From Pecten maximus (lineage: Eukaryota), in NCBI RefSeq assembly GCF_902652985.1, contig NC_047015.1, positions 54,870,001-54,934,000 of the forward strand: DNA of 64,000 nucleotides. The letters run 5' to 3'. Made by a program: the position numbers and the translations under genes. Shown in pieces: positions 23,317 to 64,000 of this stretch (position 1 is its first letter; each line of letters begins with the position of its first letter). The notes beneath the pieces are model-generated. The model saw only the letters and a program-made list of their open reading frames with translations, was not told the origin of the DNA and ran no database searches.

Positions 23317-24561
23317 TCAGTGATTCTGTTTTTGTCCTGTTCTTTGTTTTTTATCGCGGGCAAGACTTTTTGCAAGTTTGTTAACATCGCCATTTCTAAA
23401 AGATTCCAATATTTCCACGCTCCTTTTCACACGTTTCTTCGCATTTTCCATTTTCTGATCTTGAGCAAGTCTACTGCGTGATGAGGCAGGCTTGGCGTTG
23501 AAATCGGATGTCGTATTTAATCTTGTTATCATCCACGCATGCTCAGTTGCTCTGCTTTGTGGCATTTGAACCACTGACGGGGGAGCTGAAAGACATACGG
23601 TTTGAGCAAAATCTCCTAGCATTGAGGGCACTACAGATGCGTCGACAGAAGGCGCAATAGAGGGCGCTACGAAACTATTTTCTGCAAATAGTTGATCATT
23701 TAGATGTTTTTCCTCGTCCGTTTTTTCCTTATCGTCCAAAGCCATACCGGAGTATTTAGAAAGCCGACTTTTAGACTTGACATTTTGTTCATTATATTGG
23801 TCGGTTTGTTTTAAAAATGCTGGGTTAAGGAGATTTTCCAAACGCTTGAAACGCATATCTCTTGACGGTGTACCCGATTCAAGCATTGTCTTGCCTCGGT
23901 AATTGTCATAGTGTTTAAGCGCGCCATGGTCTACAACTTCCACTTCCGGTAGCTTGTTCATGAATGTCTTATCATTGTGTGTTATAATTTCCGTTTTTTC
24001 TTTGCTAATTCCAAAAGGCATTTTCATCTGCCTAGGCGTAGACGTTGTAATGTTATTTCCGTTTCCGGTTCCAGGTCCGGATCCATTTCCGATTCCGGCT
24101 GAAGCAGATTTTAGTCTTGGTCCTTTGCTCGTTTTCACTCGATAATCCGGAAGTCGGTATACGACGTCCATTTCCTTTGGGCGTCTCTCTTCCGGAACAG
24201 AATAAACCGGAAAGTTCATATTTGATAATCGGGTCTCGTCATCTCTTTTCCATTTCTTTTGTTTCCGGTCCTGCATGGCAACAAAAGTTCTTTGTGTCAG
24301 ATCGTTCGCGTTAGACTGTTTGAGTTGTCGGAGAGTCAAATCACTCATAGTTCTTTCTAGTTGGCGATCCTGACTCATATTTTCGTTCAGAATCACGTGA
24401 GAAAGAGCCGTTTTGGGTAACGAGTCCCTGACACATAGATATTGTTTTATTTTAATATTTTTTGTATCCTCACCTTGAATATATGAAAAACCATCAGGTG
24501 AAATGTCAAATTGCTGAGACAAATCGCCTCCTCCGGAGTCTAGAGGCGTCATGATTTCCAT
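23317..24561 (-). CDS. Uncharacterised single-exon protein of about 414 aa (hydrophilic, probably largely disordered)
   Basis: A 1245-bp ORF in AT-rich DNA, with first ATG at 24561 (MEIMTPLDSGGG...). A plausible 53-nt 5' UTR intron lies at 24583-24635. No TE-protein or other recognisable domain. Confidence 0.75.
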   Translation of the reverse strand: MEIMTPLDSGGGDLSQQFDISPDGFSYIQGEDTKNIKIKQYLCVRDSLPKTALSHVILNENMSQDRQLERTMSDLTLRQLKQSNANDLTQRTFVAMQDRKQKKWKRDDETRLSNMNFPVYSVPEERRPKEMDVVYRLPDYRVKTSKGPRLKSASAGIGNGSGPGTGNGNNITTSTPRQMKMPFGISKEKTEIITHNDKTFMNKLPEVEVVDHGALKHYDNYRGKTMLESGTPSRDMRFKRLENLLNPAFLKQTDQYNEQNVKSKSRLSKYSGMALDDKEKTDEEKHLNDQLFAENSFVAPSIAPSVDASVVPSMLGDFAQTVCLSAPPSVVQMPQSRATEHAWMITRLNTTSDFNAKPASSRSRLAQDQKMENAKKRVKRSVEILESFRNGDVNKLAKSLARDKKQRTGQKQNH

Positions 24562-36407: not shown

Positions 36408-37325
36408 CTAAGCTAAAGACTTTGCCCTAGCGAAAGCGTTGTTGGAAGTTATTTGTGGATAAAGTATCCTTTCTCCAGTAATGTCTTTGATGCTCGGTGT
36501 TTTCCGGCCGAGAAGGAATTCCGTAGATTGTCGCCAGATATTGTGAGGTTTCGAGGAAGGTCTCGTAGGCATTCTACTCTGACCGGGGGCAGAAGTCGAA
36601 CCCCATGAGGCCGTTTCTGGAAACCACATGGTCCTCTCCTTGAGGTAGCCTTCCATTGTATAAGTTTTGGCTCGCTCAAGAGTAGGAAGTCTTGGGGTAG
36701 TAATGTTTGCACAACTCACCGTTCTGAAAGAGAGCTCTCTTCTTGGGCGACGGGGTGAGTTCGGTGTAGATAGAGGCACAATTGTTTGGAAGGAAGTATT
36801 TTCCTGTTCGGAGTCCGTGTTAGCTGATGAAATTCCGGGTGTCTTAGGCGGAGGTTCCAGGCTAGCTTGAGTCTGTGCGGATTTTATTTTCTTTTGAGTC
36901 GTTACATACGCGCTCAAACGTTCGTTGAAGCGCTGCTTCGCTCTGCGTTCAGCTTCTTCCTTGTTGGAAGCATCTAGAGCCAACCTAACAACATTGATAT
37001 TCATACAATCGTCCTCTTTTTCTTCTTCCGAAGGCTCGGGGCTACCCCTGCCGGAAGGAGTATATTGTGCGGCCCTACCATGGCCGTGCCGTTTTTGCTC
37101 CCCCTTGACGTAGCGGTGGTAGAATGCTTTCTTTCCAAGGAACAGGTGGCGATCTTTAATGACGTCATCACTAAATTTGTAAATATTGCTCATGGAGAAG
37201 ACTGGAGACGGGGGTGGCACGTGCCTGTTTATGATCCCCGTATCCTCCTCACGAGGGAGGTACACATTAATGTAGCTCTGTCCGAACCTTGGGGAATACT
37301 CTCCCTTTTCCAAATCCTCATTCAT
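36408..37325 (-). CDS. Uncharacterised single-exon protein, 305 aa (S/T/P/R-rich, short predicted coiled coil)
   Basis: A 918-bp ORF with elevated GC. The acceptor TTTCTAATCATACAG lies 5 nt upstream of the ATG, implying a 5' UTR intron. No recognisable domain. Confidence 0.75.
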   Translation of the reverse strand: MNEDLEKGEYSPRFGQSYINVYLPREEDTGIINRHVPPPSPVFSMSNIYKFSDDVIKDRHLFLGKKAFYHRYVKGEQKRHGHGRAAQYTPSGRGSPEPSEEEKEDDCMNINVVRLALDASNKEEAERRAKQRFNERLSAYVTTQKKIKSAQTQASLEPPPKTPGISSANTDSEQENTSFQTIVPLSTPNSPRRPRRELSFRTVSCANITTPRLPTLERAKTYTMEGYLKERTMWFPETASWGSTSAPGQSRMPTRPSSKPHNIWRQSTEFLLGRKTPSIKDITGERILYPQITSNNAFARAKSLA

Positions 37326-39087
37326 GACGTCTGTATGATTAGAAATTAATTGGCTATAAGTCCTTCCTCGACGTACATTCCTTTTCTTTATGTATCCACG
37401 AACTATACCCTTTGAAAATATCCATTTTTGGTCAAGGATTTACAAATATGTTATTCAAACATTCAGTATTCATTCGTATGTATAATTAGCATACACTTGA
37501 CTTTAATCCGAATCACACAGTTAAAAACGTATGACGCGTTATATATCAATAACAGCCATTTTTGACGACAGTACCAACCTGGGAACTACATGGGGACGAT
37601 TCTGTTTCTCTTCAACACCATTTTCCATAGAAGTTCTTATCCTAAACACAACATTCATATGTCCGGCACTTTTCGGATAGTTGAATTATTCCTTTTTCCT
37701 CCAACCGGATCCATCCCCCTCCAATGTATTTCACTGACCAATCAAGCCGGCTTCAGGCAGTTAATTTGAATGGAGATATTTGTTGGCAAATCGTTAGACG
37801 TACAATGCCAAAAAGCTGATACCATTAACAATGGCGGTCAGATTGATATAGACCGTCTTCAGGGTGAGTGCCTTTTAAAATGTGTATCGAATAATTACAA
37901 AAACGGGTATATTAAAGAAGTGTATACATTTAAAGCTACGCTGAGCACACATGTATAGACTGTAGATAAAACAGACAAACACAACCAAAGTCACACAATG
38001 GAATTTTCTATGGGGCTTATGGAACGTTTAAACCGTTAAGGGCTAGCGTATATCCCTGACCGTACAATTACTGACATAGTAAATAGTTGATAGAGTAACG
38101 ACCGATAATTAGGTAGGTAACGGTATATTTGCACTCTTCTCTCACTAACTGAAACATGATACATGGCTAAATTGTTGTAACATAATGAATTGATTTACAA
38201 GTTATTGAAATATTTCAATGTATCGTCTGGGGATCGAATTGGTATGTCGATCGCTTTTAATTTTGAATTATGTTTGGACTCCTAAATGGTACCGACAAGA
38301 GTAAACGGCTCGAGTGTAAAAGGGAAGTTGACATATTCTATACATGTAAGGGTATTTAACTTTTAATTAAACCTTTATAATTACTTTTTAATTAATACGC
38401 TTGTAAGGGAAGTTTCAATTTGAACGATAAGATCAATACAACTAGAAAGAGTTGCCTCTCTCCTCGCTAATTACTATAGTCAATACTGTACAAATGTATA
38501 CCAGATACAGTGAAGTGAGTTTGATTTTATACCTAAAATTGTCTGACATAAGGCGCTAAAGATGTCACTGTAAGAAGATTGGCAAAGCTCGTATGAGGTA
38601 ACCAGTAACTCTGTTCATAGATGCAAATAGAAAAAAAAACATACACAAAAGGAAAAAAGAAAGAAAAAGAAAAGAAAAATAAAGAAAGAAAAAATCCAAA
38701 ACAAACTAGATTCTAAATGAAAAATAAAAGTCAAATTTTGCATCAAAACAACAAGCAATCAAGCATGTAAGGGAACGAAGACACAGGACAAATAATAACA
38801 ATGAGCTGGAGAAACAAATAAAGGTCCAACAAGAAAATCAAGAAAATAAATATATAAATATGAACTAATATGTATGAACTAAGTAGAAAACAAACTTAAG
38901 AAATGAAAAAATAATAGAAAAATAAATACGAAAACGTCAACAATCCATTTCAAACTCGCATCTCAATGTGTGGTGTCAGCAACATCGTAATCATAAGACC
39001 AAATAAGAAATCGGATGCAAAAACCTGGCGAGTAATCGTTTTATGACTGAACTTTTTTTTAGAGTGCACAGTATGTCAAATGTAGAT

Positions 39088-42031: not shown

Positions 42032-45015
42032 TCAGTTGTACAGAAGGATGTCCGTGAAGATGGCCTCCAAAATGACGCACATGCCCAGAAAATATAGAAA
42101 CCATGTCTTCTCTTTCGGAAGTTCGCCTTGCCGGATGAATATTATCTGAAAATGATAAGATTTTGAAAGTGGCAATTTAAGGCTTATATTTCCCATTCGA
42201 TGCTTGTATTCCTAGAATGGGTGTATCAATGTATCATACTGCAATATTGTTGAAAGGGAACGGAAGTCAAAGCTTATGTTGACGGAAGCACTAAGATAAA
42301 AATACAAATGACCATCTTTTGAGGTTAAAGGTTTGCCGTAACCCTGCACTTCACGTGCTTAATCAAAATGAATATTGGCAGGATTCATAATGTAACATGT
42401 GCTTAACGTTCTTTTCAAATCCAATTCATCTAAAATCATGAAATTTATCTTATCATGGAGACAATTGCACCAGTTAAATTTTGACATTTCTTTCGACCTG
42501 TTTCGAGGACGAAACAGCTGTATAATACAGTTTAATCCATTTTTACTCGCTCGAACTCTGAATTTGTAATAAAAGAAGCAGATATCTTACGCACCTTTTT
42601 AACATGCAATCCAAATCAACCAGTTCCAATTAAAACATATGACTTATTAAAAGACGAGTGGGAAAAGTCATGAACGTTTTTTATAGTGTATTCCCATTCT
42701 GCAACTTACAATACAATTGCAAATGCATATTCATTCAAAGCTATCAAACTCATTCAAAGATGTAAAGCGTTTTTTGAAATTACGTGAGATATTACCAATA
42801 TTATTTCCAGAATCACATATCCAACCAGACAGACTCCCAGCATGAAGTACAGGCCGCCATTCTCTCCTACGACGATTCCGCGGTATATGGCAAGTACTAC
42901 GCATACCTGTAGAAGAGGATGGGGGAAATGATATGTACTATGGCATTAACTATCCAATCCGGGGTAAGTATACAAATTATCAATGCGGACGTAATACTAT
43001 GATTTAATTGATACCGTTTATGGCAATATCAACAGGGACTTGGCACAAATTTCCAAGACACAGTGAATACACATGTATTTTATGATAATATATATATAAA
43101 TGCATGTCCTTTGGGATGAGGATTTATGAAAAGTCCCTGTGGTAATATTGTAATATCACATTCATTATATACTGTGAACCAACTTATTTCCGTGGAAACT
43201 TCTTTTTGCGTTTTCATGCCTAACGTCTTTTTCGCAGCGCGATTAAAACTATTACGCGAAAATTAATCGCACACGAAAATAATTTGGTTTATAGTAACAA
43301 TCGAGTATACCTACCATGACCATTATGATGATCAAAACGACGAATACAATCTGCAACGCCCTCTACAAACAGAAAAAAACAATAGTCCGAATATAAGCCG
43401 CTGAGTGTGGCATAGGGTACATATCTTTGACTCATTTCTTAGTAAAATGAGCCAGGATTTTAAGCAATGTCTTTTGACTCATTTCTAAGTGAGAGTTGTC
43501 AGAATATTAGCCCATGCTTTTGACTCATTTGAAGTGAAAGTTGTCAGAATGTTAGCCAATGCCTTTGACTCATTTCTAAGTGAGAGTTGTCAGAATTCTA
43601 GCCAATGCATTTGACTCATTTCTAAGTGAGAGTTGTCAGAATTTTAGCCAATGCCTTTGGCTCATTTCTAAGAGAGAGTTGTCAGAATTTTAGCCAATGC
43701 GTTTGACACATTTCTAAGAGAGAGTTGTCAGAATTTTAGCCAATGCGTTTGACACATTTCTAAGTGAGAGTTGTCAGATTTTTAGCCAATGTCTTTGACT
43801 CATTGAGCCATTTCTAAGTGAGAGTTGTCAGGATTTTTGCCAATGCCTTTGACTCATTTTGAAGTGAGAGCAGTCAGATTTTTTATCCAATGCTTTTGAC
43901 AAAGTCTCGTTGTAATATGAATATTTACATATTTTCAATATTGAGAGTCGTATAACGTCATTTATTCATGACGTCACGATAACTTTATTTACAATATTTA
44001 TGACAAATTAAAAGCTATTTACCACATATCCCGAGTTTCCTCTGGTCCTTACGTCATGTCTTGTGTAGGAGGAGGAAACTCGGGCAGTATTGAACCTATC
44101 ATCCTTTATAATATTCAGCTTGGTTTTACAGCTTTACGTTTTAAATGAATGACAGCACGTAAACATCGATACAAGGCCCTGTTAATGTCGCCTCCACTTA
44201 CTGACAACAGATCTAAAGGTCAGTTCTCATCAATTTCATATTTAAGATACATCGATACAAGGCCCTGTTTTTTTGTCGCCTCCACTTACTGACAACAGAT
44301 CTAAAGGTCAGTTCTCATCAATTTCATATTTAAGATACATCGATACAAGGCCCTGTTTTTTTGTCGCCTCCACTTACTGACAACAGATCTAAAGGTCAGT
44401 TCTCATCAATTTAATATTTAAGATACATCGATACAAGGCCCTGTTTTTTTGTCGCCTCCACTTACTGACAACAGATCTAAAGGTCAGTTCTCATCAATTT
44501 AATATTTAAGATACATCGATACAAGGCCCTGTTTTTTTGTCGCCTCCACTTACTGACAACAGATCTAAAGGTCAGTTCTCATCAATTTCATATTTAAGAT
44601 ACATCGATACAAGGCCCTGTTTTTTTGTCGCCTCCACTTACTGACAACAGATCTAAAGGTCAGTTCTCATCAATTTCATATTTAAGATACATCGATACAA
44701 GGCCCTGTTTTAACGTCGTCTTCATTTACTGACAATATGAATAACTCATAAATGATGGCCGTATGACGAAATGTCATTATAGTAAGGAATTGAACAATTA
44801 TACACGTTTTGATAAAAGACGTACAGAACGATGCCCAACAATGCAAGTTATGGATGACAAAGAAACATTAATGGGGGTAGTCGAAAAGGATTCAGTAGAT
44901 GAAAGAGTGAAAATCTTACGGCTCGTGGTCCCTGCCATTTGTCATGGTAAACAGCGTTGTCTTCGGTAGAGGTTGTTTGCTGATTTCTCATCAATGACGT
45001 CGAGTCGTCTGCCAT
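42032..45015 (-). CDS. TMEM243 (DUF2678)-like small membrane protein, paralog A, 122 aa, 4 exons
   Basis: Exons 45015-44920, 43362-43315, 42906-42796 and 42145-42032, all GT-AG and phase 0. Protein: MADDSTSLMRNQQTTSTEDNAVYHDKWQGPRA|RALQIVFVVLIIIMVM|VCVVLAIYRGIVVGENGGLYFMLGVCLVGYVILEIIL|IIFIRQGELPKEKTWFLYFLGMCVILEAIFTDILLYN*. It has three hydrophobic segments, and RQGEL resembles the recalled TMEM243 motif YWYRQGDL. Confidence 0.8.
43425..43900. repeat. Minisatellite, unit of about 46 bp (TTTGACTCATTTCTAAGTGAGAGTTGTCAGAATTTTAGCCAATGC), about 10 copies
   Basis: Directly visible; lies in intron 1 of paralog A. Confidence 0.9.
44160..44735. repeat. Near-perfect tandem repeat, 88-bp unit, about 6.5 copies
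   Basis: CATCGATACAAGGCCCTG at 44164, 44250, 44338, 44426, 44514, 44602 and 44690. Confidence 0.95.
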
Positions 45016-45189
45016 TTTGAAATGTCAAACTTCCGTATATCGGACCGAGGCTGTTTTACAAACAACCATGTGAATTTGATAAATAAAACGTCGCGCTATT
45101 TAGAGTGGATGATGTGATACGACAATGAGCGTTTATCTCGCGTCAATAGCGATGTCTTGTGAGCCCTTATCACATGATGTTGTGTCAAC
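45016..45189. promoter_or_regulatory. 174-bp bidirectional promoter/5' UTR spacer between the two TMEM243-like genes
   Basis: CpG-enriched spacer between divergent ATGs. It has an ETS-like ACTTCCG (about 45029) and an E-box TCACATGA (45170). Both ATGs lie in YY1-like contexts (AAAATGGC, AACATGGCGG). Confidence 0.6.
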
Positions 45190-48100
45190 ATGGCGGGCGG
45201 CGAGGTCACCAGCACGGAGTCTAACGCTATTTACTATGAAGTTTCTCCGACAATTGTATGTATAAATATATGTAATTTTTACTATAAGATTGTCGTTATA
45301 TTTTCTTCATTTAAGGTTATTACTATTTGAAAAGAAATGGATAATTGATCTTGATTTAAATAGTCCACAGGTATCGTGGTGACTCATGTATATATATACA
45401 CTGTATATATTGTGTTATTTATTGCCAACCAATCGCTTCCTGTTTCATCTGTTATGAGGGAATACGATTGTTTGTCTGCTAATCAAGATGATAATTTTTG
45501 AGTGAATTTTCATCTAAATGGCTTTCTATAGAAATAAAATGTCCTTAAAGATTTGCATGTCTTCAGCAACATGGTTTACTTTATGTTCCAGGCCTACCTT
45601 CTGCAATTCTGTAACTTACTTTGCCCAAATTTATTGCCTTTTTTTAAATCAGTGTTTTTCTATCAATCTTATGACTTTGTATCGTTGCAGACCTACGTTC
45701 TACGGTTCGATAACTTACTTTGTCCAAATGTTGCCGTTTTTTCAACTCAGTTTTACTATCAATAAAAATGACATTAGCATGGTGTGTACGTTTTGACTTT
45801 TTATCGTTTCAGACCTGCCTTCTCCGGTTCTGTAACGTGATCATGGCACTAATGATAGTGGTAAGTGTTGTCCATTCTTTGTTTCTTATGCCTTTATTGA
45901 CCCCCATTACCCTCATTCTGTCCGTCCGTCATAGATTTGGTTCAGAGAGAATTGTGCACTTATAAATATAGATGAATAAATATTTTTGTTGAAGTAAACT
46001 TCTATGTTCAGCTGTCAAACCTGGTATTTTTAATACTTTGGCAAGTTTCGACGTTCAATGTTTTGGCTACAGTTTCTAGATGGAAGGTTTTGGTTTAGAA
46101 GTTTTGTAGAGTTTGTCATTCATTCATTTAGTACTCATATGATGCTTGTATTTCCCATGTTTGTTTCTTTGTCTGATATTGTTTTACTCCAAATCAACAA
46201 AACAACATTTTAACAAAACATTTTAAAATTCCTTTGTTTTATCTGCGCTTTCAATGTTGTCTCCAAGCGGGCTCTTCTTCTTCTTCTTCTTCTTCTGTTC
46301 ACTATTTAGAGATGGAACATATCAATTTCATGTTTTCTTGAAAAATGTCTTTTTTTTCATTTTAAAAGTGAAAACAATGAAAATTTGAATCTTTGAAAAG
46401 AGCCATTTCATTAATGATACATAAAATGTGATTATGTTTATTTAGACTTTGGCTGTTTTTGTTTTGTGTTTTTTGTGTTTTGTTTGTTTTGTTTTTGTTT
46501 TTGTTTTCGGTTTGTTTTCTCCATTTTTGAATTTGAACACATTTTCTCGTCTTTTGATCCCCTCATGCATCAAGAATGTATAAAATAACGGTATTGTTTG
46601 TCTCTGTATTAAATTAACGATACAGAAATCACTCTTAAACTTGGTGTCTGACGATCGATAAGTTACAAAAGCGTGCCTATTTTAATGTCACTCTCCGTGT
46701 ATGAACTTTCCTTTCGAAACATATCCTATATCCAGTGGTATATATGCCTTCTTTGCTTATGCTTTTACGTTCTACCATCGACTTGATTCATTGGGACCTT
46801 TCATCAATAAACTGTTCTGGATAGAGGCGGCTGGCCAGTAATAAAGTATTCATAATCGGGGTTTTCTATCAGAAGACTTCCAATCTACGCTGAAGATTCT
46901 TTATTTGATACTTTGTCTGCCAATGTTGTCTTTATTGGTTTTGTCCCGGTGTTAACGTCTTCTGTAATAGATAATGTATATATCTCTTTCCTAGAGGAGG
47001 CTAAAATAGGTCAATCAGTTAGAGCCCCGGCCACGAAAACTCAGATGATGATCCGCGGTACGTGGTTCGATGCCCCTTCCCATGTCGGTTTGTGTTTCTC
47101 GGAAAGCTGAGGAACTGGCTGGTCTGTACTGTCGTGGTTGTGTCCCTGGGCAAGACACTTCGCCGTAATTGTTCTGAATGGCATGTGACGGGCCTCCCGT
47201 ATGTTGGTCGGTGAAGTAGTCAAAAGGTATCTTCGCGCCACGCGGAGTGAAACGTAATCAGTGGCCAGCGAAGATGATCAAAAGGAGACCTCGCCTCAAA
47301 ATGACCCTTGCTGTTCTAGAATCGATAAACCCAGCAAACAAACAAACAAACAAACAAACAGACCTTTATGTAGCATTATGATGGTAATGAAATTAATATC
47401 AATAAAACATAACTTTCCTGTTGTAGATATCATTTACCATGTGTCTGGTGGAGGGTCACCGGAATCAGACCTTCTACCTACTGGCCTGTAATACCGTCAG
47501 TAAGTATACCTGAATCGTAACAAGTGGAAGCTTATCTCGTGTAGAATGTACACTTAGATGAAATGCAAATGAGCGTATCATTAACAGAGACGGTGATATA
47601 TATATACATGTAGAAGTGTTTATTATGCAGTCATTTCTCCGCGAAATGTAGGAGTCGTATGCCATATATGAACATAACGAGTTCCATTTGTGATTTCTTT
47701 CTTATGAATTGTGGAATGTATGATATATAGGGACTGAATGGATTTTGTTTCACTTTTATTGCGGCTTTGAATACTAAGTAGCAGTAGTTATCTACATACC
47801 CCGTGGTGCGCGTTAGCATACCTCGAAAGATATGCAAGTCAAGTATTTCATTAATATTTTTACAGCCAACCTTTTATTAGAACGTTTATAACCAACCTTT
47901 CATTGATACTTTTACAGCCAACCTTTCATTAATATTTTTACAGCCAACCTTTTATTAGAACGTTTATAGCCAACCTTTCATTAATATTTTTACAGCCAAC
48001 CTTTCATTGATACTTTTACAGCCAACCTTTTATTAGAACGTTTATAACCAACCTTTCATTGATACTTTTACAGCCAACCTTTCATTAATATTTTTACAGC

Positions 48101-51100
48101 CAACCTTTTATTAGAACGTTTATAGCCAACCTTTCATTAATATTTTTACAGCCAACCTTTCATTGATACTTTTACAGCCAACCTTTCATTAATACTTTTA
48201 CAGCCAACCTTTTATTAGAACGTTTATAGCCAACCTTTCATTAATATTTGTACAGCCAACCTTTTATTAGAACGTTTATAGCCAACCTTTCATTAATATT
48301 TTTACAGCCAACCTTTCATTAGAACGTTTATAGCCAACATTTCATTAATACTTTTACAGCCAACCTTTTATTAGAACGTTTATAGCCAGCCTTTCATTGA
48401 TACTTTTACAGCCAACCTTTCATTGATACTTTTACAGCCAGCCTTTCATTGATACTTTTACAGCCAGCCTTTCATTGATACTTTTACAGCCAGCCTTTCA
48501 TTGATACTTTTACAGCCAGCCTTTCATTGATACTTTTACAGCCAACCTTTCATTGATACTTTTACAGCCAACCTTTCATTGATACTTTTACAGCCAACCT
48601 TTCATTAGGGTTTTTACAGTCAATCTTTCATTAATACTTTTACAGCCAACCTTTCATTGATACTTTTACAGCCAACCTTTCATTGATACTTTTACAGCCA
48701 GCCTTTCATTGATACTTTTACAGCCAACCTTTCATTGATACTTTTACAGCCAACCTTTCATTGATACTTTTACAGCCAGCCTTTCATTGATACTTTTACA
48801 GCCAACCTTTCATTGATACTTTTACAGCCAACCTTTCATTGATACTTTTACAGCCAACCTTTCATTGATATTTTTACAGCCAACCTTTCATTGATACTTT
48901 TACAGCCAACCTTTCATTAATGCTTTTACAGCCAACCTTTCATTAGAACGTTTATAGCCAGCCTTTCATTGATACTTTTACAGCCAACCTTTCATTGATA
49001 CTTTTACAGCCAACCTTTCATTGATACTTTTACAGCCAACCTTTCATTGATACTTTTACAACCAACCTTTTATTAGAACGTTTATAGCCAACCTTTCATT
49101 AATATTTTTACAGCCAACCTTTCATTAGAACGTTTATAGCCAACCTTTCATTAATATTTTTACAGCCAACCTTTCATTAGAACGTTTATAGCCAGCCTTT
49201 CATTGATACTTTTACAGCCAACCTTTCATTGATACTTTTACAGCCAACCTTTCATTGATACTTTTACAGCCAACCTTTCATTGATACTTTTACAGCCAAC
49301 CTTTCATTGATACTTTTACAGCCAACCTTTCATTAATGCTTTTACAGCCAACCTTTCATTAGAACGTTTATAGCCAGCCTTTCATTGATACTTTTACAGC
49401 CAACCTTTCATTGATACTTTTACAGCCAACCTTTCATTGATACTTTTACAGCCAACCTTTCATTGATACTTTTACAACCAACCTTTTATTAGAACGTTTA
49501 TAGTCAACCTTTCATTAATATTTTTACAGCCAACCTTTCATTAGAACGTTTATAGCCAACCTTTCATTAATATTTTTACAGCCAACCTTTCATTAGAACG
49601 TTTATAGCCAGCCTTTCATTGATACTTTTACAGCCAACCTTTCATTGATACTTTTACAGCCAACCTTTCATTGATACTTTTACAGCCAACCTTTCATTGA
49701 TACTTTTACAGCCAACCTTTCATTGATACTTTTACAGCCAACCTTTCATTGATACTTTTACAGCCAACCTTTCATTGATACTTTTACAGCCAGCCTTTCA
49801 TTGATACTTTTACAGCCAACCTTTCATTAATGCTTTTACAGCCAACCTTTCATTTATGCTTTTACAGTCGACCTTTAAGGCTATCAAAAAACCTTCTAAA
49901 GAATGTACATGCCGAGTCCAGTTTACATAGGAACCCTTAACAGTATGTGTAACAGGGTGGTTTATATACATTTTTCGTTATCTATTTCAGTCAGTGCGCT
50001 CGTTGGAGTAGTAGTGGTAAGTATTATATCTGTTCTTAAGAAATGAAAACAAGATATTTAACATAACGATGTATATTTTTTACTGGAGTTACCTATGGGT
50101 AGCAGAAAGGACATAAATCCATTAAAACAAAACCATTGTCAAAAACATATCAATAAAAATCCTTTTCAAATCAACATATGTTATGGAACAATTAACGTTA
50201 AAAACCAAACCAATAGACAAGAAAACTAAACCAATAGACAAGAAAAACACACCAATAGACAAGAAAACCAAACCAATAGACAAGAAAATCAAACCAATAG
50301 ACATGAAAACCAAACCAATAGACAAGTAAACTAAACCAATAGACAAGAAAACCAAACCAATAGACAAACGGAAATCATTAGTCTCGGCTGCAGAATCAAG
50401 AAACCTAAATTAATGAACTCACAAACTGACGCTAGATGCAAAAGACACCCAAGGTATTAGCGCCATTCCAAACAAAATGAAAATTAATCAAAGTAGAGCT
50501 GTTTCGTCTATCTAGGACTCGTCAGTGACGTTAGGGACATCATGCAAATTGTATGTCCTTCTAGGACTTGTCAGTGGTGTAAGGGACATCATACAACTGT
50601 TTCGTCCTTTTATTTTAAGACTCGTCAGTGTTGTAAGGGCCTAAAGTGACCATAGGAGCAGATCAAAACTCAAACCGCACTAACAGTTCAAAAGAAATGT
50701 CAAATCTGGATAGGTGGTGTAGAAGACCCATTATTTCAGTAAATATTTTGTGTAAAATAATTTTCAAAATTTTCATTATTGCATTCCAAAAGAACATAAA
50801 GTGCGTGTTATATTCTGAACCGTGTGACTATTGAAATTAATCTAAAGTGTGACAAAAAGTTTACGATAAACCTCTGGCACTACAAATCCACTAGCAGTGG
50901 CTATCATTAGCCCGAGTTTCCCCTGGCCCTGACACCATGTAGGGGCCCTACACCAGACATGGCGTCAGGGCCAGAGGAAACTCGGGCTACGCTACCATCT
51001 GCAATCTCGAATGACTGTATGGAGGACACAAAAATATTTGTATTTTTCAAAACAAACTTTGATTTTGATATAGTGGAGCCAAACTGAACTAGACTGCATC

Positions 51101-53273
51101 ATACAGCTGTTTCCTCCTGTTAGTATGACAAATGTTGTGACGACGAATTGAGCAAGCTTTGCAGGAACTAGCCTGTAATTGTCACAACGCTGTCATAGTG
51201 TATGAGCTGATGTCGTTGTCACAAAATTATCCAAGATTTCCCATCTCTATAATCTAATGATGTTATTGAATCGATGAAATGAATCATAATTTAATATTGA
51301 TGAAAATATTAGCGATAAAATATTTTCCTTCATTTGTTCTCCTTACATTTCCGAGAATTGAAGCGAATGAACGATGAAATCGACGAATTTTTAATGAATT
51401 TATAGTTTTATACAATTTTAACTAATTCAATATCATGGTACCAAGGGGTTGCGTTCACTAACAATCCCTCAAGACGAGGTTACTAAGCGCGATCGTATCA
51501 TATAACCATACAGGGTCCATGTATATTATCTTGACGAACATATTACCGTTACGTAAAACGGTGAGGGATATTGAAAAGACAGTATTAATTTATATGAGAC
51601 CAGAATCTTTCGTTTCTATGTGAATTAACAATGCCAGTCATACAAAATGTATTTCCGGCGATATATTTGCGAATTTTCAGATATTTCTCAGAATATCGCA
51701 ATTTGAAAATTTGACATACGATAGTGGCCAGCTGTATACTGAAAATGTGGTTATTTTCGCGAGTGGTTAATTTCGCGATTTCGATATGTTAACCATACGC
51801 GTGGGGGTAATTTTCGCGATCGATTCACCTTCGTTTATAATTCGAGATTACACAAATTGTATAATTTTGCATCTAACATACGTGTCCGGGGCTTCATGAT
51901 GCATTTGAAAGTATGAAGGACACAAGTATATACATGTATATCAAATATTCTTTTCTGAATTCTCGCACAATTCTCAGAATATCGCAATTTTAAAATTTGA
52001 CATACGAGAATGACTATGCTATTTATACGGCATTAAAAAGGTGACATTTTAAACAGTATTAATAACACAAGTATATGTAGTGAATCTTGTTTTTTTTATT
52101 CTTTATTGCTATTCTTTACTTTTTGCAGAACTGGTGGTATCGAGGTGGTGATTTGGTAAGTTTCTGATCAAAGAAAAATTGTGGTGATGGGATTGCTGGT
52201 CACAGGTTCATGGATAAACACTTAAAGGGACATTCCTTCGTTTGAATAAAGTTTAAGTCGTCAAAATTATACTTACTCGAAAATATATATTTTTTCCAAG
52301 AAGTAAGTAATAATCTTTACATTAATACAGCAGTTTTACTCTCAAGATAAACCAAAGTTCTTCGAGTATTAAGTCCTGAAAATTCTTAATTCGACCCGAA
52401 GTATCACTAATTACTGCAAAGACATACGGTATTTGTATACGATACACCCTTTTCCTGTACATTTCGGCGTTAATTTCATTACATGTAGGCACAAACACTC
52501 GTATAATCATCGTTCGGACATAATTTCATCAATAGAAATTGTGCATGTTTCTGATGTCCGAACGAAGGAATGTCCCTTTAAGAAGCCATTTTAATTGTTT
52601 CGATTGGTAACCGTTGTTAAGAGTGTTCTTCGACTCAAGAAATGTTTTTCAATGGCATTTCTATGGATAATGTCCATGAGTCTGGAACAAAGCCGAAATG
52701 TAAATCTATTACATGAAATCCCATGATAAAACTTTCAAAAGTCTTACACTTTCATTACCCGGCGAAACAAGGATATTGGCAGACTGATATAAAGTTGCCT
52801 TGTATTTGTTCCACTGTAAAACCCTACCTCATTTACTAATCATCCCTAGTTCTCATTTTGAGGACGTTACATTACTTGATTTGACCTAATTTTAAATGAC
52901 TGATGTCATACACTTCCAAAACACCTGGTGATATTTTCTTCTGTTGTGCGTTTCCATGAAAATCTTGTCTTTTGTTGACATTTCGTATTGATTTATCTAT
53001 TATGGGTTAATTTAAATGTTAATTTATCTTATTTTTGTTTTTGTTTTACAGAGTTCAGATAAATACTGGTACCTGTTCATCGTAGCGGCCGTGATAACAT
53101 TTCAGTGCATAACAACAGATGTATACCTGTTCAAATCCACACCAGTCCACGACACAGACATCCATCCGGCAACTATTCGGACCACTCCCCGACCTATTAA
53201 CCGGTCTACGATTACTGCAGCCACCATAAAGAATCTGATGGACTTCTACACACCCGAGCCGACTGAGTTCTAA
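45190..53273 (+). CDS. TMEM243 (DUF2678)-like small membrane protein, paralog B, 153 aa, 6 exons including 26- and 27-nt microexons
   Basis: Exons 45190-45255, 45813-45860, 47427-47499, 49991-50016, 52129-52155 and 53052-53273. All have AG/GTAAGT or GTATGT boundaries and consistent phases (0,0,1,0,0). Protein: MAGGEVTSTESNAIYYEVSPTI|TCLLRFCNVIMALMIV|ISFTMCLVEGHRNQTFYLLACNTV|ISALVGVVV|NWWYRGGDL|SSDKYWYLFIVAAVITFQCITTDVYLFK plus a T/P-rich tail. WWYRGGDL matches the recalled TMEM243 motif YWYRQGDL. Confidence 0.83.
47040..47360 (+). mobile_element. tRNA-derived CORE-like SINE
   Basis: B-box GGTTCGATGCCC, CORE-like GTTGTGTCCCTGGGCAAGACACTT and an (AAAC)n tail. Confidence 0.72.
47845..49875. repeat. 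Minisatellite, 26-bp unit (CAGCCAACCTTTCATTGATACTTTTA), about 77 copies with interspersed variants
   Basis: Directly visible 2-kb array in intron 3 of paralog B. Confidence 0.96.
50200..50367. repeat. Minisatellite, 21-bp unit (AAACCAATAGACAAGAAAACC), about 8 copies
   Basis: Directly visible; explains ORF 50122-50367. Confidence 0.9.
50908..50989. mobile_element. 82-bp hairpin MITE (degenerate relative at 44030-44084)
   Basis: 33-bp arms TAGCCCGAGTTTCC(C/T)CTGGCCCTGAC(A/G)CCATGT with 2 mismatches. Confidence 0.7.
52226..52577. mobile_element. TTAA-flanked MITE (Kolobok-like termini)
   Basis: TTAA|AGGGACATTCCTTCGTT ... AACGAAGGAATGTCCCT|TTAA, with 17-bp perfect TIRs. Confidence 0.85.
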
Positions 53274-55854: not shown

Positions 55855-56401
55855 CTTATGTCTGAAATCCAAGGGAAATAACTCCATTTAAATTCAATTA
55901 GATTCTTGTTTAATATAGTAGCTACACTGAGGAATATTTCTATTCACACACCCAAGCATACACAATACATGTACTATTTAAACCGAATCTTCCTATTAAT
56001 AATGTGTAAAACACATTATGAGCACTTTCCGGAAAAATTCCCCGGAATTCCAAAACGTCCATACACATTCCTTGTCCATTGTTCATTCTTCACAAGAGGA
56101 TAGCAACATGTTTATATGAACTTTTAAGCTGTCTTTATAAATAGCACTATTGATCTGAAGCATTCTATCACATACGTTTACAGTAGAATTATGGTATTTC
56201 CTGTTATCGTAAGAAACCAATATTCTGTGAAGATACAGGAACCTCAAGAAATTAATCCTTTTGTAAAATTGCAGTCTTTACACAATTTCCATCGTCCATA
56301 TCAACGACAATATAAACACATGCGTTCTTGTTGTGATTTCACAGATATTTAAATTTCCACAGAACAAAGCGTCTAAATCCTTTGGCTGATCGTTGCTATG
56401 G

Positions 56402-59400
56402 TTACTGGGCCATTTGCGTCTCCATAAACTTGACCATCCAGTCGGGTGCCGTTTGGTCGATTTTCTCGATGATCTGGTTGACTTGGAAACAGAGGCTCTG
56501 AATCTGTTTATCCCATGTGGGTAACGCCTCACGATCTGAGAAAAAACAAAAAGGGCAGCCGATACAGACTATATTACAAATACATGTCGTCATGACAACA
56601 TTACCAATACCTGTCTTCACGACTACATTATTGAAGACGAAGTCATTTTTTTTTTTTTACAAATCCTACTTTCTATTTGTCTGCAACCCAGTGAATTTCA
56701 CAAATATTCCTGAAACACAAACCCAAATTTAAATCACACTGGAAATTAAAACTAATGCATATTTATGCAATACAATAATCATATAACATTGGATTTTTCC
56801 AAATTTCAAACCAATTAAAGCATTAAGTTTTTATTTTTTTTAATTTTCGAGCTACATGATGGCAGGGGAGGTAATCTGGTCTTAGATTATGTTCTCCATG
56901 GCCGATTTTGTTTTTTCGGTCCAATCAGTTCGACCAGTTGGACCGGTGTTGTTCGTTTATGAAATAAAGACGGACCAGGTGATTTTATATTGTTTTCATA
57001 CGAGCCTTGACAAATACTTCCAAGGCCTGTATTAACATTTGCCGGTCCGTCAAGATATATATTTGAAATATTACAGCAAAACTAACATGTACTCAAATTT
57101 TTGTTCCAAAGAAGAAAAAGATGTACCTTCAAAATGTACAATGGAGTCAATTTGATCTATACATCCATTCATTCTCTCTTCCGTTATCATCTGGGAAGCA
57201 ATCTTTTCTGCCTGTAAATACATGTATAGTAAAACACATTCAAAATGACAAACAAACAAAAACAATTTTGATATAATTTAATTCCTTCTAAGTTTCATCC
57301 ACTAAATGGAATTTCTTATATTTTTTTAAATCATAAAGATGACCAAAAGAATTAGATAAAAAAAAAATATCTAAGATTTGCAGTACTTAAATGGTACAAG
57401 ATTTCAAAAATTATTTAAATCACAAAGTTATATATGAACCAACCAATTAAAATTGTAAGTGTGAATACTCATCAAAATATCCATTTGACAAAAAAAATAT
57501 AAAAAATATTCAAAATACCTTTGTTGATGGAATTTCTAAAAGGGATCCAAGTTCATCAAAAGATATATTATTGTAAAGTTTACTGGCTGAGAGAAGGTTG
57601 TGCTCGATAACCGCTCGGTCTAGAATTGTAGATCCTTCAAAATACAAAAGATTACATGTGGATTGAAATCACCATGAACCAAACACAAGCTGCCAAGCAG
57701 TAAGCAACCAGAGGCTGATGTTCCCAACCATTTAACAATATGTGTATAATTATCTAGTGTATTAAGGTATTTATATTGCTTCTTAATTTCAGTCATATCA
57801 TCAGAAAATGCAAGTTATTATTCAATGAATACCTCAGAACCCCTAAAATGTCCAACCAACTGAATTTCAGTAGGCAAAAAGGAAAAGGAACTATGATAAA
57901 TTGAAGTATTTTGGCAATCATCAGTAAAAGACTTTTATGAAATGTACAGCAGAATTGTCACACAAAGTGTCAACCTAAGTCTTGGCAGTACAGGTGGGTA
58001 TATGCTTTGTAATTAGAGCTGTGTATCGCAAGGTGGGAAGCGATATGATTTATATCGCGATACATGGGTCACCATACGATACGTATCATGATATATGAGA
58101 AGCTGATGACCTATCAGATATTTGATATTCCATCGTACAGTAGTCATGTTTTGTTTGTGGTATTTCCGGAATATTAGAGTCCCACAAAGGGTTCTTGACT
58201 TTAGATAATTCAGATTTGAAAGAACTCCAATGGTCAGCTTTATAAGCTGCTAGAACGGCCTTGTCAGCTGTGTTGTTTACTACAAAACATGTAAGCTAAC
58301 GTTGGTCAAGGGAGATAACTACACATTTTCAAGTATCGCGATACAAATCAAGGACAGACGATGCACCACTCTGCGATCCAATACATCGATACATCGGTGA
58401 ACTGTTACACCACTATTTGTAATACAAACATTTGTAGTAGGGTACAGTAGACACTCACCATCTGAAGTAACAGCTTTCTGGTGAGACTGTAAATATGATG
58501 CAAATTCCTGTAAATCACTGCTGCGGATTATTCTGTCCAAGTACCTGAAATTTTTCAACGAATTCAATAATTGTTATGAGGAATTAACAGTCAATGTAAA
58601 ATTATAGTTTCCGAGACATAATGGCCACAATTTGTGAATACTGGAATGTTGATGTGACTTTTGATGCTTGAACCTTGACTGGTGATCACCAAACTTTAAA
58701 GCGACCAGATCTGTCGATTTTATGATCGTTAAACGGTGATTTATTTTTATAAACAGTGAAATGGGTTTAAGCAAAAGCGATACCAGTGCCTATACTGTTA
58801 AAAAAACATTCCATAAATATACAAGTTTTGAAACACTTTTCACCCTGGTTGATGTTTATCAACCATCAACCAGGGTGAAAAGTGTTTCAAAACTGATATA
58901 CTTATAGCACATTTTTTTTGAAGTATAAGCTTGAGTAAAGAAAAATATACAGCAAAAAACAAATTGGGTCACGAGGGTGCGAGTGCATTGTAATGTTATT
59001 TGTTTTGAACTGGTTTAGGTATTTACAAAACAAGGTCACAGACACTTTAAGTGGAAGTCTTAAATATATGAAATATTTCTTAGAAACATTATGCCTGATA
59101 ACATTTTCCAACAGTGATTTTTACAGTTAGTGTCGCTTTAATCAGGTGTAAAATTTCAAACTACAGAGCTATACAAGAGATCCCAGAGGGATCTTGGCGC
59201 CAACCATTGATTGATCTTTATAGGTTCCATGTCAGATTGATCTTTTCTCTATTTTCCCTTCCTCTTACTAATCTGTGCAAATTGAGAAACATCTCTCAAG
59301 AACTTTTCAAACAAGGGGAACCAATATATGAAATTTGAGAAAGATCCCTATAGCACTTTCTAAGAAATAGTGATAACAAACTTCAATTGTCAAAATCCAA

Positions 59401-62400
59401 GATGGCTGCCTGTCAGCCATGTTGTTTTTCCGATTGGTCTCAAAATGTAATATGCATAACTAGGCACCAAGGGGAACCTACATATGAAATTTCATAAAGA
59501 TCCCTTCAGTACTTTCTGAGAAATAGCGATAACAAACTTCAATTGTCAAAATCCAAGATGGCTGCCTGTCAGCCATGTTTTTTTCCCGATTGGTCTCAAA
59601 ATGCAATATGCATAACTAGGCACCAAGGGGAACCTACATATGAAATTTGAGAAAGATCCCTTCATTACTTTCTGAGAAATAGCGATAACAAACTTCAATG
59701 GTCAAAATCCAAGATGACTGCCTGTCGGCCATGTTGTTTTCCGATTGGTCTCAAAATTCAATATGCATAACTAGGCACCAATGGAACCTACATATGAAAA
59801 TTGAGAACGATCCCTTCACTACTTACTGAGAAATAGTGATAACAAACTTCAATTGTCAAAATCCAAGATGGCTGCCTGTCAGCCATGTTGTTTTTCCGAT
59901 TGGTCTCAAAATGCAATATGCATAACTAGGCACCAAGGGGAACCTACATATGAAATTTCATAAAGATCCCTTCAGTACTTTCTGAGAAATAGCGATAACA
60001 AACTTCAATTGTCAAAATCCAAGATGGCTGCCTGTCAGCCATGTTTTTTTCCTGATTGGTCTCAAAATGCAATATGCATAACTAGGCACCAAGGGGAACC
60101 TACATATGAAATTTGAGAAAGATCCCTTCAGTACTTTCTGAGAAATAGCGATAACAAACTTCAATTGTCAAAATCCAAGATGGCTGCCTGTCAGCCATGT
60201 TGTTTAACGATTGGTCTCAAAATGCAATATGCATAACTAGGCACCAAGGGGAACTTACATATTAAATTTGAGGAAGATCCCTTCAGTACTTTCTGAGAAA
60301 TAGCAATAACAAACTTTAATTGTCAAAATCCAAGATGGCTGCCTGTCGGCCATGTTGTTTTTCCGATTGATCTCAAAATGCAATATGCATAACTGGGCAC
60401 CAAGGGGAACATACATATGAAATTTCAGAAAGATTCCTTCATTACTTTCTGAGAAATAGTGATAACAAACTTCAATTGTCAAAATCCAAGATGGCTGCCT
60501 GTCGGCCATGTTGTTTTCCGATTGGTCTCAAAATGTAATATGCATAACTAGGCACCAAGGGGAACCTACATATGAAATTTGAGAAAGATCCCTTCAGTAC
60601 TTTCTGAGGATTAGCGATAACAAGAATTGTTTACGGACGGAGGGACGGACGGAGGGACCACGGACCACGGACGCAGGGCGATTTGAATAGCCCACCATCT
60701 GATGATGGTGGGCTAAAAATGCAAGTGCCCTGCCATGGATAAATTTTTTAAGTTACCAAAGCCTCTGCAAGTCTTGAATTTGACAACTTAAACTGCTTCC
60801 TTCCCAATCAACACCATAAACCTGTCGTATCATTTCCTGTCATCAAAGCTATTAAATTTTTTTGACTTACATTTTTTCTAGTATGTGGTATGCTGGTAGC
60901 TGTTGGCATCGCTCATCTTTAAAAAGCGTAGCTAACATTCTAGATCTCTGTTGTCCTGTGAAAGAGAGAAACATTTTTTGATCAGATATAAAAAGAGTTT
61001 TAAATGTTATTACAGTTTTATCAAGAGACCACTGAATCCCAATATCACTGGTTTATAATACGGCTTTTGTAATTGAGTCAAAAAGGAAAGTAAGACCAAT
61101 TTCATTTTACTATGAGTTCTTTAGCTGAACTCTATGTTTGTGTGTGGTAATGTGTATGCTAAGGTCGTATAGCTATAGGTGTTCTTGTTATGGGGCTGTG
61201 TTTCATTCATTTTATTATACAATTAGATTTCTAAAACATGGAAATAGAGGTTACACAATGAGCAGTTTGGTTTGTTTTTTGTTTAACGTCCTATTAACAG
61301 ACAGGGTCATTTAAGGACATGCCAGGTTTGGAGGTGGGGGAAAGCCGGAGTACCCGGAGAAAAACCACCAGCCTACAGTCAGTACCGGGCAACTGCTCCA
61401 CATGGGTTTCGAACTCGCTACCCAGAGGTGGAGGACTAGTGATAAAGTGTCGCGACACCTTAACCACTCAGCCACAGCGGCCACAACGAGCGGTTGTACT
61501 TTGTTGGATATGGAATTTATGTCACTCGAGTAAGTCATTTTTTTAAAGTTACAAATGTCATGAACTTACGAGTGTGAAATAAATTCCATATCCAAAAATC
61601 ATGAGTAGTGTGACCTGTTTCTACCACAATTATATCGGCTTGAATCAATGCGGAACCTGGCCAAGTATGCTTTCCTGTATGCAAATAAAGTGTACAAGTG
61701 ACAGGCGGGACCCGGTGATGTGACGCCATTCGATGATTATTGATGACATAAATTGCAGTTCGGGTCAAAGTTTGAACTCTTGACCAATCAAAAGACCAGA
61801 AGGTTTATATTCCACTAGTGGACTATACACTGAAACATATATATATCCAAAGGTCAGCACATTTATACATTGGCCTGAGAGTGGAATAACACAGAAAATA
61901 GACAGACAAATAGACAGACAAACAGGCAGACAAACAGGCAGACAGAAAAAAGCAGATATGTTTATATAATTACCGGCTGATGCTAGAATGGTACAGATGA
62001 GAGCATTTTTCAGTGAGGTGAGTCTCTCTTCCTCGGCTATCAGGGTACGAAATGACAGCTCATTGTATCTCTGAGCTGCTTCAATGAACTTTCTGCGGTA
62101 GTCCAGCACACGGGCATAACAGGCCTTTAAAAAACATCAGATGTGGATATTAAGAGTGTATGCTATCATTTGTGTGAAGAATTCAACACATAAGAGATTT
62201 AATTAAAATATAGAGACACATTTGATACAGAATTTACAGCACTACAGCAGCCATCTCTCACAGATACAGGGGATACAGAATTACAGCAGTCATCTCTCAC
62301 AGATACAGGGGTTACAGCACTACAGCAGCCATTTCTCACAGATACAGGGGTTACAGAAATACAGCAGCCATTTCTCACAGATACAGGGGTTACAGAAATA

Positions 62401-63868
62401 CAGCAGCCATTTCTCACAGATACAGGGGTTACAGAAATACAGCAGCCATTTCTCACAGATACAGGGGATACAGAATTACAGCAGCCATCGCTCATCTCCC
62501 ACAGGTACAAGGGCTACAAGCTTTCTTACATCTCTCACATACAGGAGTTACAGCATTACAGCAGCCATCTCTCACAGATACAAGGGTTACAGCAATACAG
62601 AAGAATGATGAAAGCGTGATGTATTTACCTTGTAGTGTATCTGTAGCATGTATTTACCTTGTAGTGTATCTGTAGTGGACTGATGAAAGCGTGATATATT
62701 TACCTTGTAGTGTATCTGTAGCATGTATTTACCTTGTAGTGTATCTGTAGCTTGTATTTACCTTGTAATGTATCTGTAGCATGTATTTACCTTGTAGTGT
62801 ATCTGTAGCCTGTATTTACTTTGTAGTGTATCTGTAGCCTGTATTTACCTTGTAGTGTATCTGTAGCATGTATTTACCTTGTAGTGTATCTGTAGCCTGT
62901 ATTTACCTTGTAGTGTATCTGTAGCCTGTATTTACCTTGTAGTGTATCTGTAGCATGTATTTACCTTGTAGTGTATCTGTAGCATGTATTTACCTTGTAG
63001 TGTATCTGTAGCCTGTATTTACCTTGTAGTGTATCTGTAGTAGACTGATGTATTTACCTTGTAGTGTATCTGTAGCATGTATTTACCTTGTAGTGTATCT
63101 GTAGCATGTATTTACCTTGTAGTGTATCTGTAGCATGTATTTACCTTGTAGTGTATCTGTAGCCTGTATTTACCTTGTAGTGTATCTGTAGCATGTATTT
63201 ACCTTGTAGTGTATCTGTAGCCTGTATTTACTTTGTAGTGTATCTGTAGCCTGTATTTACCTTGTAGTGTATCTGTAGCATGTATTTACCTTGTAGTGTA
63301 TCTGTAGCCTGTATTTACCTTGTAGTGTATCTGTAGCATGTATTTACCTTGTAGTGTATCTGTAACATGTATTTACCTTGTAGTGTATCTGAAGCTCCTC
63401 ATTGCGGGTATCTGCCTGTAGTAGTGATGCTCTATTGATGTAAGCTTCTGCCTGAACCGGATCCTCATCCTCCAGATAGAGTCTGGCTATCTTTAGGTAC
63501 GTTTCTAGCTTGTAGTCTGTAGCATACTGCCTGGATTTACCAAAGAGAAATAAAACGTGATACAATGACTTCAACATTTAAATCATGTGCATAGCTACTG
63601 GCAAACCAAAATCTAACATGACAAATTAAATAGCCCAGGCATGATACATGTTCCCTACCACAACACATTGTCTAGTCATGAACTAGCATACTGGTAAGTA
63701 TGTACAAAGCATTCTATTCCAATCTACACAGTACAAGAAGAAACTTATTCTTTGCTTGGCTTACTTTTGTCCTGTCTCTAGGGGAATTCCTACCAACACA
63801 TTGGCAGCTTCTCGCCAAGACAATTCCCTTTCATAGATGTCTGCCAGGTGTTGACGTATGGCTGCCAC
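56402..63868 (-). CDS. COPS4: COP9 signalosome complex subunit 4 (PCI domain), last 8 coding exons; the 5' part lies outside the window
   Basis: Exons 63868-63765, 63530-63377, 62124-61974, 60955-60871, 58544-58459, 57634-57519, 57211-57127 and 56535-56402, all GT-AG and phase-consistent. The translation is near-identical to recalled CSN4: [130 protein letters not shown]. Confidence 0.97.
58014..58415. mobile_element. hAT-like MITE with an 8-bp TSD (COPS4 intron)
   Basis: TAGAGCTGT...ACACCACTA termini and subterminal TATCG/CGATA motifs. Perfect TSD TTTGTAAT at 58006-58013 and 58416-58423. Confidence 0.82.
58824..58894. repeat. Perfect 31-bp inverted repeat with a 9-nt loop
   Basis: AGTTTTGAAACACTTTTCACCCTGGTTGATG - TTTATCAAC - CATCAACCAGGGTGAAAAGTGTTTCAAAACT. 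Confidence 0.92.
59172..60719 (-). mobile_element. Non-autonomous Helentron (HINE-like) carrying about 8 x 156-bp internal tandem repeats (COPS4 intron)
   Basis: Read on the minus strand: TTTTTAGCCCACCATCATCAGATGGTGGGCT 5' hairpin, (GTCC) microsatellite, array of about 156-bp units at 59330-60620, and 3' palindrome AGATCCCTCTGGGATCT plus CTTGT. Confidence 0.87.
61268..61481 (-). mobile_element. V-SINE-like element nested in a palindromic DNA element
   Basis: Reverse complement of the 55632 family. 14-bp TSD CACAA(T/C)GAGC(A/G)GTT at 61254-61267 and 61482-61495. Confidence 0.85.
62222..62600. repeat. Minisatellite, 39-bp unit (ACAGCAGCCATTTCTCACAGATACAGGGGTTACAGAAAT), about 9 copies
   Basis: Directly visible; explains repetitive ORFs 62199-62510 and 62222-62608. 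Confidence 0.9.
62620..63392 (-). repeat. 29-bp tandem array built from a COPS4 exon end plus splice donor, about 26 copies including the authentic junction
   Basis: The minus-strand unit is TGCTACAGATACACTACAAG|GTAAATACA. The terminal copy is the real exon end (..CTTCAGATACACTACAAG|GTAAAT, exon ends 63377). Confidence 0.95.
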
Positions 63869-64000
63869 CTGAAACCGTGCCAAAAAGAATAGTGTTTAAA
63901 GATAAAACAATATCAATCAGTTACATAACTGTAGATATATTTTCACATATTACTGTAAGCAAAAGCAAAGTGAGTCACAGTTAGCCGGGGCTCACAGATA

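Follow-up and report, generated by a model that had tools for sequence, protein, structure and literature searches.

The current analysis concerns two small, spliced genes of the scallop Pecten maximus, which stand head to head within a 64,000-nucleotide (nt) stretch of contig NC_047015.1 (positions 54,870,001 to 54,934,000, hereafter the window). These genes, termed A (122 amino acids (aa), minus strand) and B (153 aa, plus strand), are two new subfamilies of a known, functionally blank family, and they occupy an unusually old linked arrangement. Several lines of evidence support A and B as three-helix members of the DUF2678/TMEM243 superfamily. At a probability of roughly 0.4, we tentatively favor the view that they are co-regulated as a pair and that their products probably combine into a single endosomal or lysosomal membrane complex, in which A would contribute a sorting signal, B a luminal shield, and the polar faces of both an interface or conduit.

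The ATG of A is located at 45015 and that of B at 45190, with 174 bases between them, and all eight introns carry GT-AG boundaries. The spliced reading frames of A and B are identical at every position to P0002 (122 aa) and P0012 (153 aa), two database proteins labelled as uncharacterized P. maximus LOC117338327 and LOC117338321, respectively. The models bear out a sequence-only reading of the window, which had proposed two small divergent genes starting from these ATGs and encoding three transmembrane (TM) helices each. The peptide motifs it quoted are present and a 48-nt, phase-0 exon 2 is shared by both genes. The splicing it proposed can be seen in part directly in transcript contigs, which derive from four runs of four studies, three of the runs being RNA by guess. 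The junction of A exons 1 and 2 as well as those of B exons 1, 2 and 3 occur in the RNA contigs of all four runs and a loose contig end extends into B exons 4 and 5 in three, while the A exon 2-3, A exon 3-4 and B exon 5-6 junctions are based upon GT-AG signals and the identical database proteins. Transcripts of both genes are present in every run. The same contigs change the picture of the supposed 174-base pair (bp) shared promoter, as this distance is simply the gap between the two ATGs and it is largely transcribed. A-side contigs reach 45069-45131, B-side contigs start at 45071-45205, and one contig spans straight through, such that RNA covers the gap wholly or mostly. Therefore, the gap is mostly 5' untranslated region (UTR) and the starts of A and B are close or overlapping, although the contigs place neither the starts nor the strands. 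Two candidate promoter sites within the gap were not used: an M-box/CLEAR-like TCACATGA at 45170 (6 occurrences in the window vs. 6.5 expected) and an ETS-like site at 45029 (7 vs. 3.7 expected).

The resemblance of A and B described in the sequence-only reading holds up in each comparison that was made. In a pairwise alignment of 118 columns they are 23% identical (E 7e-11), their alignment score of 115 compares with a shuffled mean of 30 and was reached by none of 1000 shuffles, and the profile-profile probability is 99.7%. Their kinship to TMEM243 stands as well, since both genes score higher against DUF2678 (PF10856) than against any other Pfam family, albeit at 17.9 bits for A and 17.7 bits for B, which is below the 27.8-bit cut-off. 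The A orthologue of Lingula scores 28.0 bits against the same family, and DUF2678 is the top Pfam family at E<=0.01 for 46 of the 59 B proteins and 18 of the 49 A proteins. A language-model search likewise returned DUF2678 clusters only (A at 0.98, maybe A's own cluster; B at 0.87, to be taken as a lead), while single exons of A or B searched alone gave no DUF2678 match. The assignment to TMEM243 itself did not survive. A and B form clades of their own (see below) and are not TMEM243 orthologues; the canonical TMEM243, whose existence elsewhere in the genome the sequence-only reading had raised, is encoded by two copies on C7. Even so, A, B and both C7 genes have three phase-0 introns in common (alignment columns 58-59, 75 and 116); exon 1 of the two canonical genes was sought without being located. 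These canonical genes (G000:C7:31239620-31240237 and C7:38813666-38814105; L001-L004) look intact and lie ~7.6 Mb apart, giving the genome four superfamily members. A search of the same genome found no copies of A or B beyond the pair, and weak matches to C16 and to other parts of C1 were attributed to chance.

The predicted structures agree with this placement. AlphaFold2 models contain helices at residues 30-61, 65-90 and 96-121 of A and at 20-47, 53-77 and 82-108 of B, with moderate confidence (pTM 0.51 and 0.55), and three hydropathy peaks are found in each protein. The W-Y-R-x-G-D-L loop that follows TM2 reads WWYRGGDL in B and FIRQGEL in A, the latter retaining the R, G and L only, and TM3 of both clades has a polar E/Q-x-I-x-T-D motif. 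Fold comparisons, which also bear on a possible kinship with MPC/SemiSWEET-type three-helix transporters, were less informative: Foldseek returned no match to either model at E<=0.001, and VIA-align found generic three-helix bundles only, whose best Z scores, 11.7 and 10.7, are too low to be meaningful in the case of helical bundles. Among related proteins, we also encountered a further TMEM243-like group with a cysteine-rich C-terminal extension (P0116, P0120, P0137 and P0138). Separately, some database B proteins, such as P0172, P0077 and P0098, do not have the 9-residue micro-exon bearing the signature loop, which probably reflects annotation misses.

When examining the distribution of A and B, it is evident that both are old. 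Searching 1.84 billion representatives with a profile yielded 120 matches at E<=0.001, and trees were built from 140 sequences, minus 45 fragments or mispredicted proteins. FastTree places an A clade (49 sequences, support 0.95) and a B clade (35 sequences, 0.94) apart from the TMEM243-type sequences. For IQ-TREE, run on 41 chosen sequences, the ultrafast bootstrap support, re-read by bipartition, is 97 for A, 89 for B including four divergent members, and 100 for A and B together vs. the TMEM243-type sequences. The grouping is by paralogue and not by species, and on this phylogenetic evidence A and B are separate ancient subfamilies resulting from one ancestral duplication rather than repeated lineage-specific ones. 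A proteins with a named source come from bivalves, abalones, Lingula, echinoderms, Saccoglossus, the coral Oculina and the sponge Oscarella, whereas those of B come from molluscs, nemerteans, an annelid, echinoderms, Glandiceps, anemones and corals. In three partly spliced coral-type B contigs, the acceptors lie 144, 96 and 23 nt upstream of a common anchor, the same offsets as in scallop B, and these contigs also share the B-specific phase-1 intron. Because cnidarians, echinoderms and molluscs are represented in both clades and B introns are shared with coral-type transcripts, the duplication is, judging from trees and intron positions, older than the cnidarian-bilaterian split. The metagenome scan that supplied the three coral-type contigs (1.7 kb) found none extending to an A gene, a scan of prokaryote genomes found no relative of A or B, and chordates, arthropods and nematodes are missing among the matches with a named source, most matches being unnamed.

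The linkage of the two genes appears to be old as well. Outside of P. maximus it was followed through proxies, with equal scaffold length taken as the same scaffold and identifiers taken as roughly positional (those of the P. maximus pair are six apart). The proxies agree in all 10 other species for which both A and B were named among the matches listed. Identifiers are consecutive or near-consecutive in 7 of the 10: Argopecten (XP_069123696/697), Mizuhopecten (LOC110467028/029, on a 1.08-Mb scaffold), Saccostrea cucullata (LOC134244605/606, 698 kb), Potamilus (CHS0354_003393/394, 674 kb), Haliotis rufescens (LOC124110856/857) and the starfish Asterias rubens (LOC117303634/635) have consecutive identifiers, and Ylistrum (LOC132562895/899, 333 kb) near-consecutive ones. 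Equal scaffold length alone links the genes in the other three, Haliotis asinina, Asterias amurensis and the coral Oculina. For many species, only one of the two genes was among the matches listed. These identifier and scaffold proxies point to adjacency since the protostome-deuterostome ancestor together with same-chromosome linkage in a coral, and they strongly suggest that A and B have remained linked from that ancestor, or an even earlier one, onward. The old duplication retained in place, as suggested by the sequence-only reading, is supported, and the pair is both older and more widely kept than that reading could tell. In Lingula, the same A sequence (P0011) is present under the consecutive loci LOC106176852 and LOC106176853, and a Lingula B was not among the matches listed.

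Beyond their common core, A and B have apparently diverged in a complementary manner, with a candidate acidic-dileucine-like motif in A only and a tail rich in predicted glycosylation sites in B only. Lysine plus arginine counts are higher in loop 2 (2.9 and 2.3) than in loop 1 (1.2 and 1.1), and the sequons of B are located in loop 1 and the tail. Since loop 2 is the more basic and the sequons fall in loop 1 and the tail, we strongly infer a topology with the N-terminus in the cytosol and the C-terminus in the lumen. A loose [DE]xxx[LI][LIVMF] pattern occurs at the N-terminus of 31/47 A proteins (on average 1.6 and at most 6 after shuffling) and 0/50 B proteins, and it is found in A of all 17 named genera, while 76 of the 126 asparagines in B tails lie in sequons, compared to 30 after shuffling (reached by 0/1000 shuffles); as the sequences are related and not independent, such motif and sequon counts overstate certainty. 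The residue ahead of the hydrophobic pair in A is mostly Pro, Ser or Ala, and AP-3 is described as tolerating P, S or A at position -1 of an acidic dileucine signal (PMC3418312, which also gives the consensus). The tail of A is nearly nil (median of 5 residues past the conserved Asp), whereas that of B comprises at least 16 residues in 57/59 proteins, varies in length around a median of 45 residues and is 44% Ser/Thr/Pro. The most conserved positions are polar residues within TM2 and TM3: N60 (100%), S64, Q98 (98%) and D103 (92%) in B, and E112, T116 and D117 in A. An acidic xxPL[FL] motif was also observed just before TM1 of TMEM243-type proteins (P0120, P0128, P0130 and others), 4 of 8 fitting the loose pattern, which hints at adaptor-type sorting across the whole family.

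Based upon these features, several suggestions can be made regarding the function of the pair. A and B would be transcribed divergently from one short region, which presumably keeps them in step because they are subunits of the same complex; it is their linkage together with their complementary features that suggests a heteromer. A would supply a putative adaptor-binding acidic-dileucine-like signal and B a glycosylated luminal shield, the predicted destination of the complex is endosomes or lysosomes, and the conserved polar residues of TM2 and TM3 may form an interface or a small solute or ion path. Several points weigh against this proposal. The strict [DE]xxxL[LI] pattern is found in only 7/47 A proteins and is absent from the A protein of the window, which reads DSTSLM, and the looser one was drawn up with the sequences already in view. 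A YxxPhi-like motif precedes TM1 in 37/51 B and 0/48 A proteins (counted with no shuffle control), so B may travel alone on the strength of its own motif. The runs were chosen for containing the stretch, which biases the joint presence of A and B, and their contigs carry neither level nor strand. Outside P. maximus, linkage is seen through identifiers and scaffold lengths, which are blind to orientation and distance, and Babylonia has two B proteins (P0161 and P0165) on scaffolds of different length. Human TMEM243 (MM-TRAG) is reportedly mitochondrial, going by the title of a 2004 paper by Duan. Finally, conserved 5'-5' linkage is also common among unrelated genes (PMC3514665). A bolder version of the proposal, which we regard as rather unlikely, would have A and B form an undescribed channel or transporter of endolysosomes that consists of two subunits and is as ancient as the animals themselves, with the shared start region dating from before the cnidarian-bilaterian split, A as its sorting subunit and B as its glycosylated one, and TMEM243 as a single-gene relative residing in endomembranes and not mitochondria.

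It is also conceivable, if somewhat unlikely, that A and B are co-regulated and physically separate, each forming its own homo-oligomers within the endomembrane system (e.g., A in lysosomes, B at the surface or in endosomes) and serving one pathway, with the shared start region preserving the linkage. The two candidate sorting motifs, one in each protein, would be in line with this, as would the many ancient 5'-5' pairs that are co-expressed without being subunits (PMC3514665) and the canonical TMEM243, for which no such neighbor was detected in the family search. However, the split between a signal in A and a tail in B, kept from cnidarians to molluscs, fits a division of labor within one unit. 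The linkage might even be uninformative with respect to function, if an inverted duplication left the two starts so close or overlapping that any breakpoint between them is harmful, in which case tissue expression may differ. RNA contigs over nearly all of the 174 bp, which imply 5' ends that abut or overlap, are what this explanation would predict, and the promoter motifs tested do occur at chance rate in the window, but it has to contend with the presence of A and B transcripts together in 4/4 runs and with a 17-genome survey in which at least 68% of 110 linked metazoan paralogue groups are independent duplications (PMC3514665), mostly recent, in contrast to the ancestral pair described here. 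We consider it unlikely.

Two further explanations were weighed. The Ser/Thr/Pro-rich, sequon-rich tail of variable length could make B a small mucin-like cell-surface protein functioning in the glycocalyx, adhesion or microbe contact, with A as its trafficking or recycling partner or in an unrelated role; this is improbable given that the conserved part of B is its polar membrane core (N60, Q98 and D103) and not the tail. Least probable by far is a mitochondrial location of both proteins, which is how human TMEM243 (MM-TRAG) was first described. The title of Duan 2004 speaks for it, whereas the sequons under selection in B and the adaptor-type motif in A both point to the secretory pathway.

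The pair can be compared with several known systems. A and B share with TMEM243 (C7orf23, MM-TRAG) a core of ~120 aa, three helices, a W/F-Y/I-R-x-G-D/E-L loop and the column positions of three phase-0 introns; they differ in their sub-cut-off Pfam scores, separate clades and polar TM3 E/Q-x-I-x-T-D, and B additionally in two extra introns and a predicted glycosylated tail. MPC1 and MPC2 are small paralogous three-TM subunits that form one transport unit, and in ClC-7/OSTM1 a glycosylated partner shields a lysosomal protein. Both are analogies only, as no link in sequence or fold to A or B was found. COL4A1 and COL4A2 are head-to-head paralogues on a short shared region, conserved throughout the metazoans, whose products co-assemble (PMC12141075). 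A and B are likewise divergent paralogues with their ATGs 174 bp apart (<1 kb), but collagen IV heterotrimers are proven, whereas A and B are small membrane proteins whose assembly is putative and whose orientation is known in P. maximus alone. The ancestral microsyntenic pairs of Irimia 2012 (HSPE1-HSPD1, HADHA-HADHB; PMC3514665) show the same 5'-5' layout, gap of <1 kb and cross-phylum linkage. However, those genes are unrelated, and paralogues with ancestral linkage, such as A and B, are a minority case in that survey. TMEM243 has been associated with paclitaxel resistance (PMC12841848, PMC4899892) and is among the positive-selection genes of a sea cucumber (PMC6390002). Literature searches on six locus identifiers of the pair and its relatives in other species, or on TMEM243 plus paralog, returned no paper, though the supplementary tables of PMC3514665 might list the pair unnamed, and among papers retrieved with DUF2678, C7orf23 or MM-TRAG terms none concerned the A or B genes, as judged by titles and the starts of abstracts.

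Two unnamed pan-invertebrate subfamilies are thereby defined within a human gene family without known biochemical function, and the subfamilies acquire testable handles, namely linkage to a partner, a candidate motif for sorting, a tail predicted to be glycosylated and polar residues in the membrane. Paralogue pairs with ancestral linkage are rare, and the products of the best-known one, collagen IV, are obligate partners. Should A and B indeed form a heteromer in lysosomes or endosomes, this would suggest both a function and a location for TMEM243, which is linked to taxane resistance and mechanistically blank.

Table 1. Exons of A and B and the gap between their start codons (window positions).
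Feature	Position	Strand	Description
A exon 1	44920..45015	-	32 codons; acidic-dileucine-like DSTSLM and Tyr motif ahead of TM1
A exon 2	43315..43362	-	48 nt, phase 0; first part of TM1; RNA junction to exon 1 in 4/4 runs
A exon 3	42796..42906	-	111 nt; rest of TM1, loop, TM2; GT-AG, agrees with P0002
A exon 4	42032..42145	-	RQGEL loop, TM3 with E-x-I-F-T-D, stop
ATG-to-ATG gap	45016..45189	.	174 bp; both 5' UTRs and shared divergent start region; RNA contigs
B exon 1	45190..45255	+	22 codons; YxxPhi-like YYEV
B exon 2	45813..45860	+	48 nt, phase 0; RNA junctions
B exon 3	47427..47499	+	73 nt; sequon N51; ends at B-specific phase-1 intron
B micro-exon 4	49991..50016	+	26 nt; RNA loose end in 3/4 runs
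B micro-exon 5	52129..52155	+	27 nt; WWYRGGDL motif; first bases within RNA loose end
B exon 6	53052..53273	+	TM3 (Q-C-I-T-T-D), Thr/Pro-rich tail with sequon N130, stop

Elsewhere in the window, long open frames of 421 and 343 aa on the minus strand (23317-24582 and 36408-37439) have no Pfam match above cut-off and are possibly large exons of uncharacterised genes. The minus strand from ~56360 to 64000 contains exons of a gene arranged tail to tail with B, which we take to be COP9 signalosome subunit 4-like and which has a weak PSMD12/CSN4 Pfam match. The introns of A and B also harbor tandem arrays at 43426-43900, 44163-44735 and 47846-49876 with units of 46, 88 and 26 bp, respectively, the last comprising ~78 copies.

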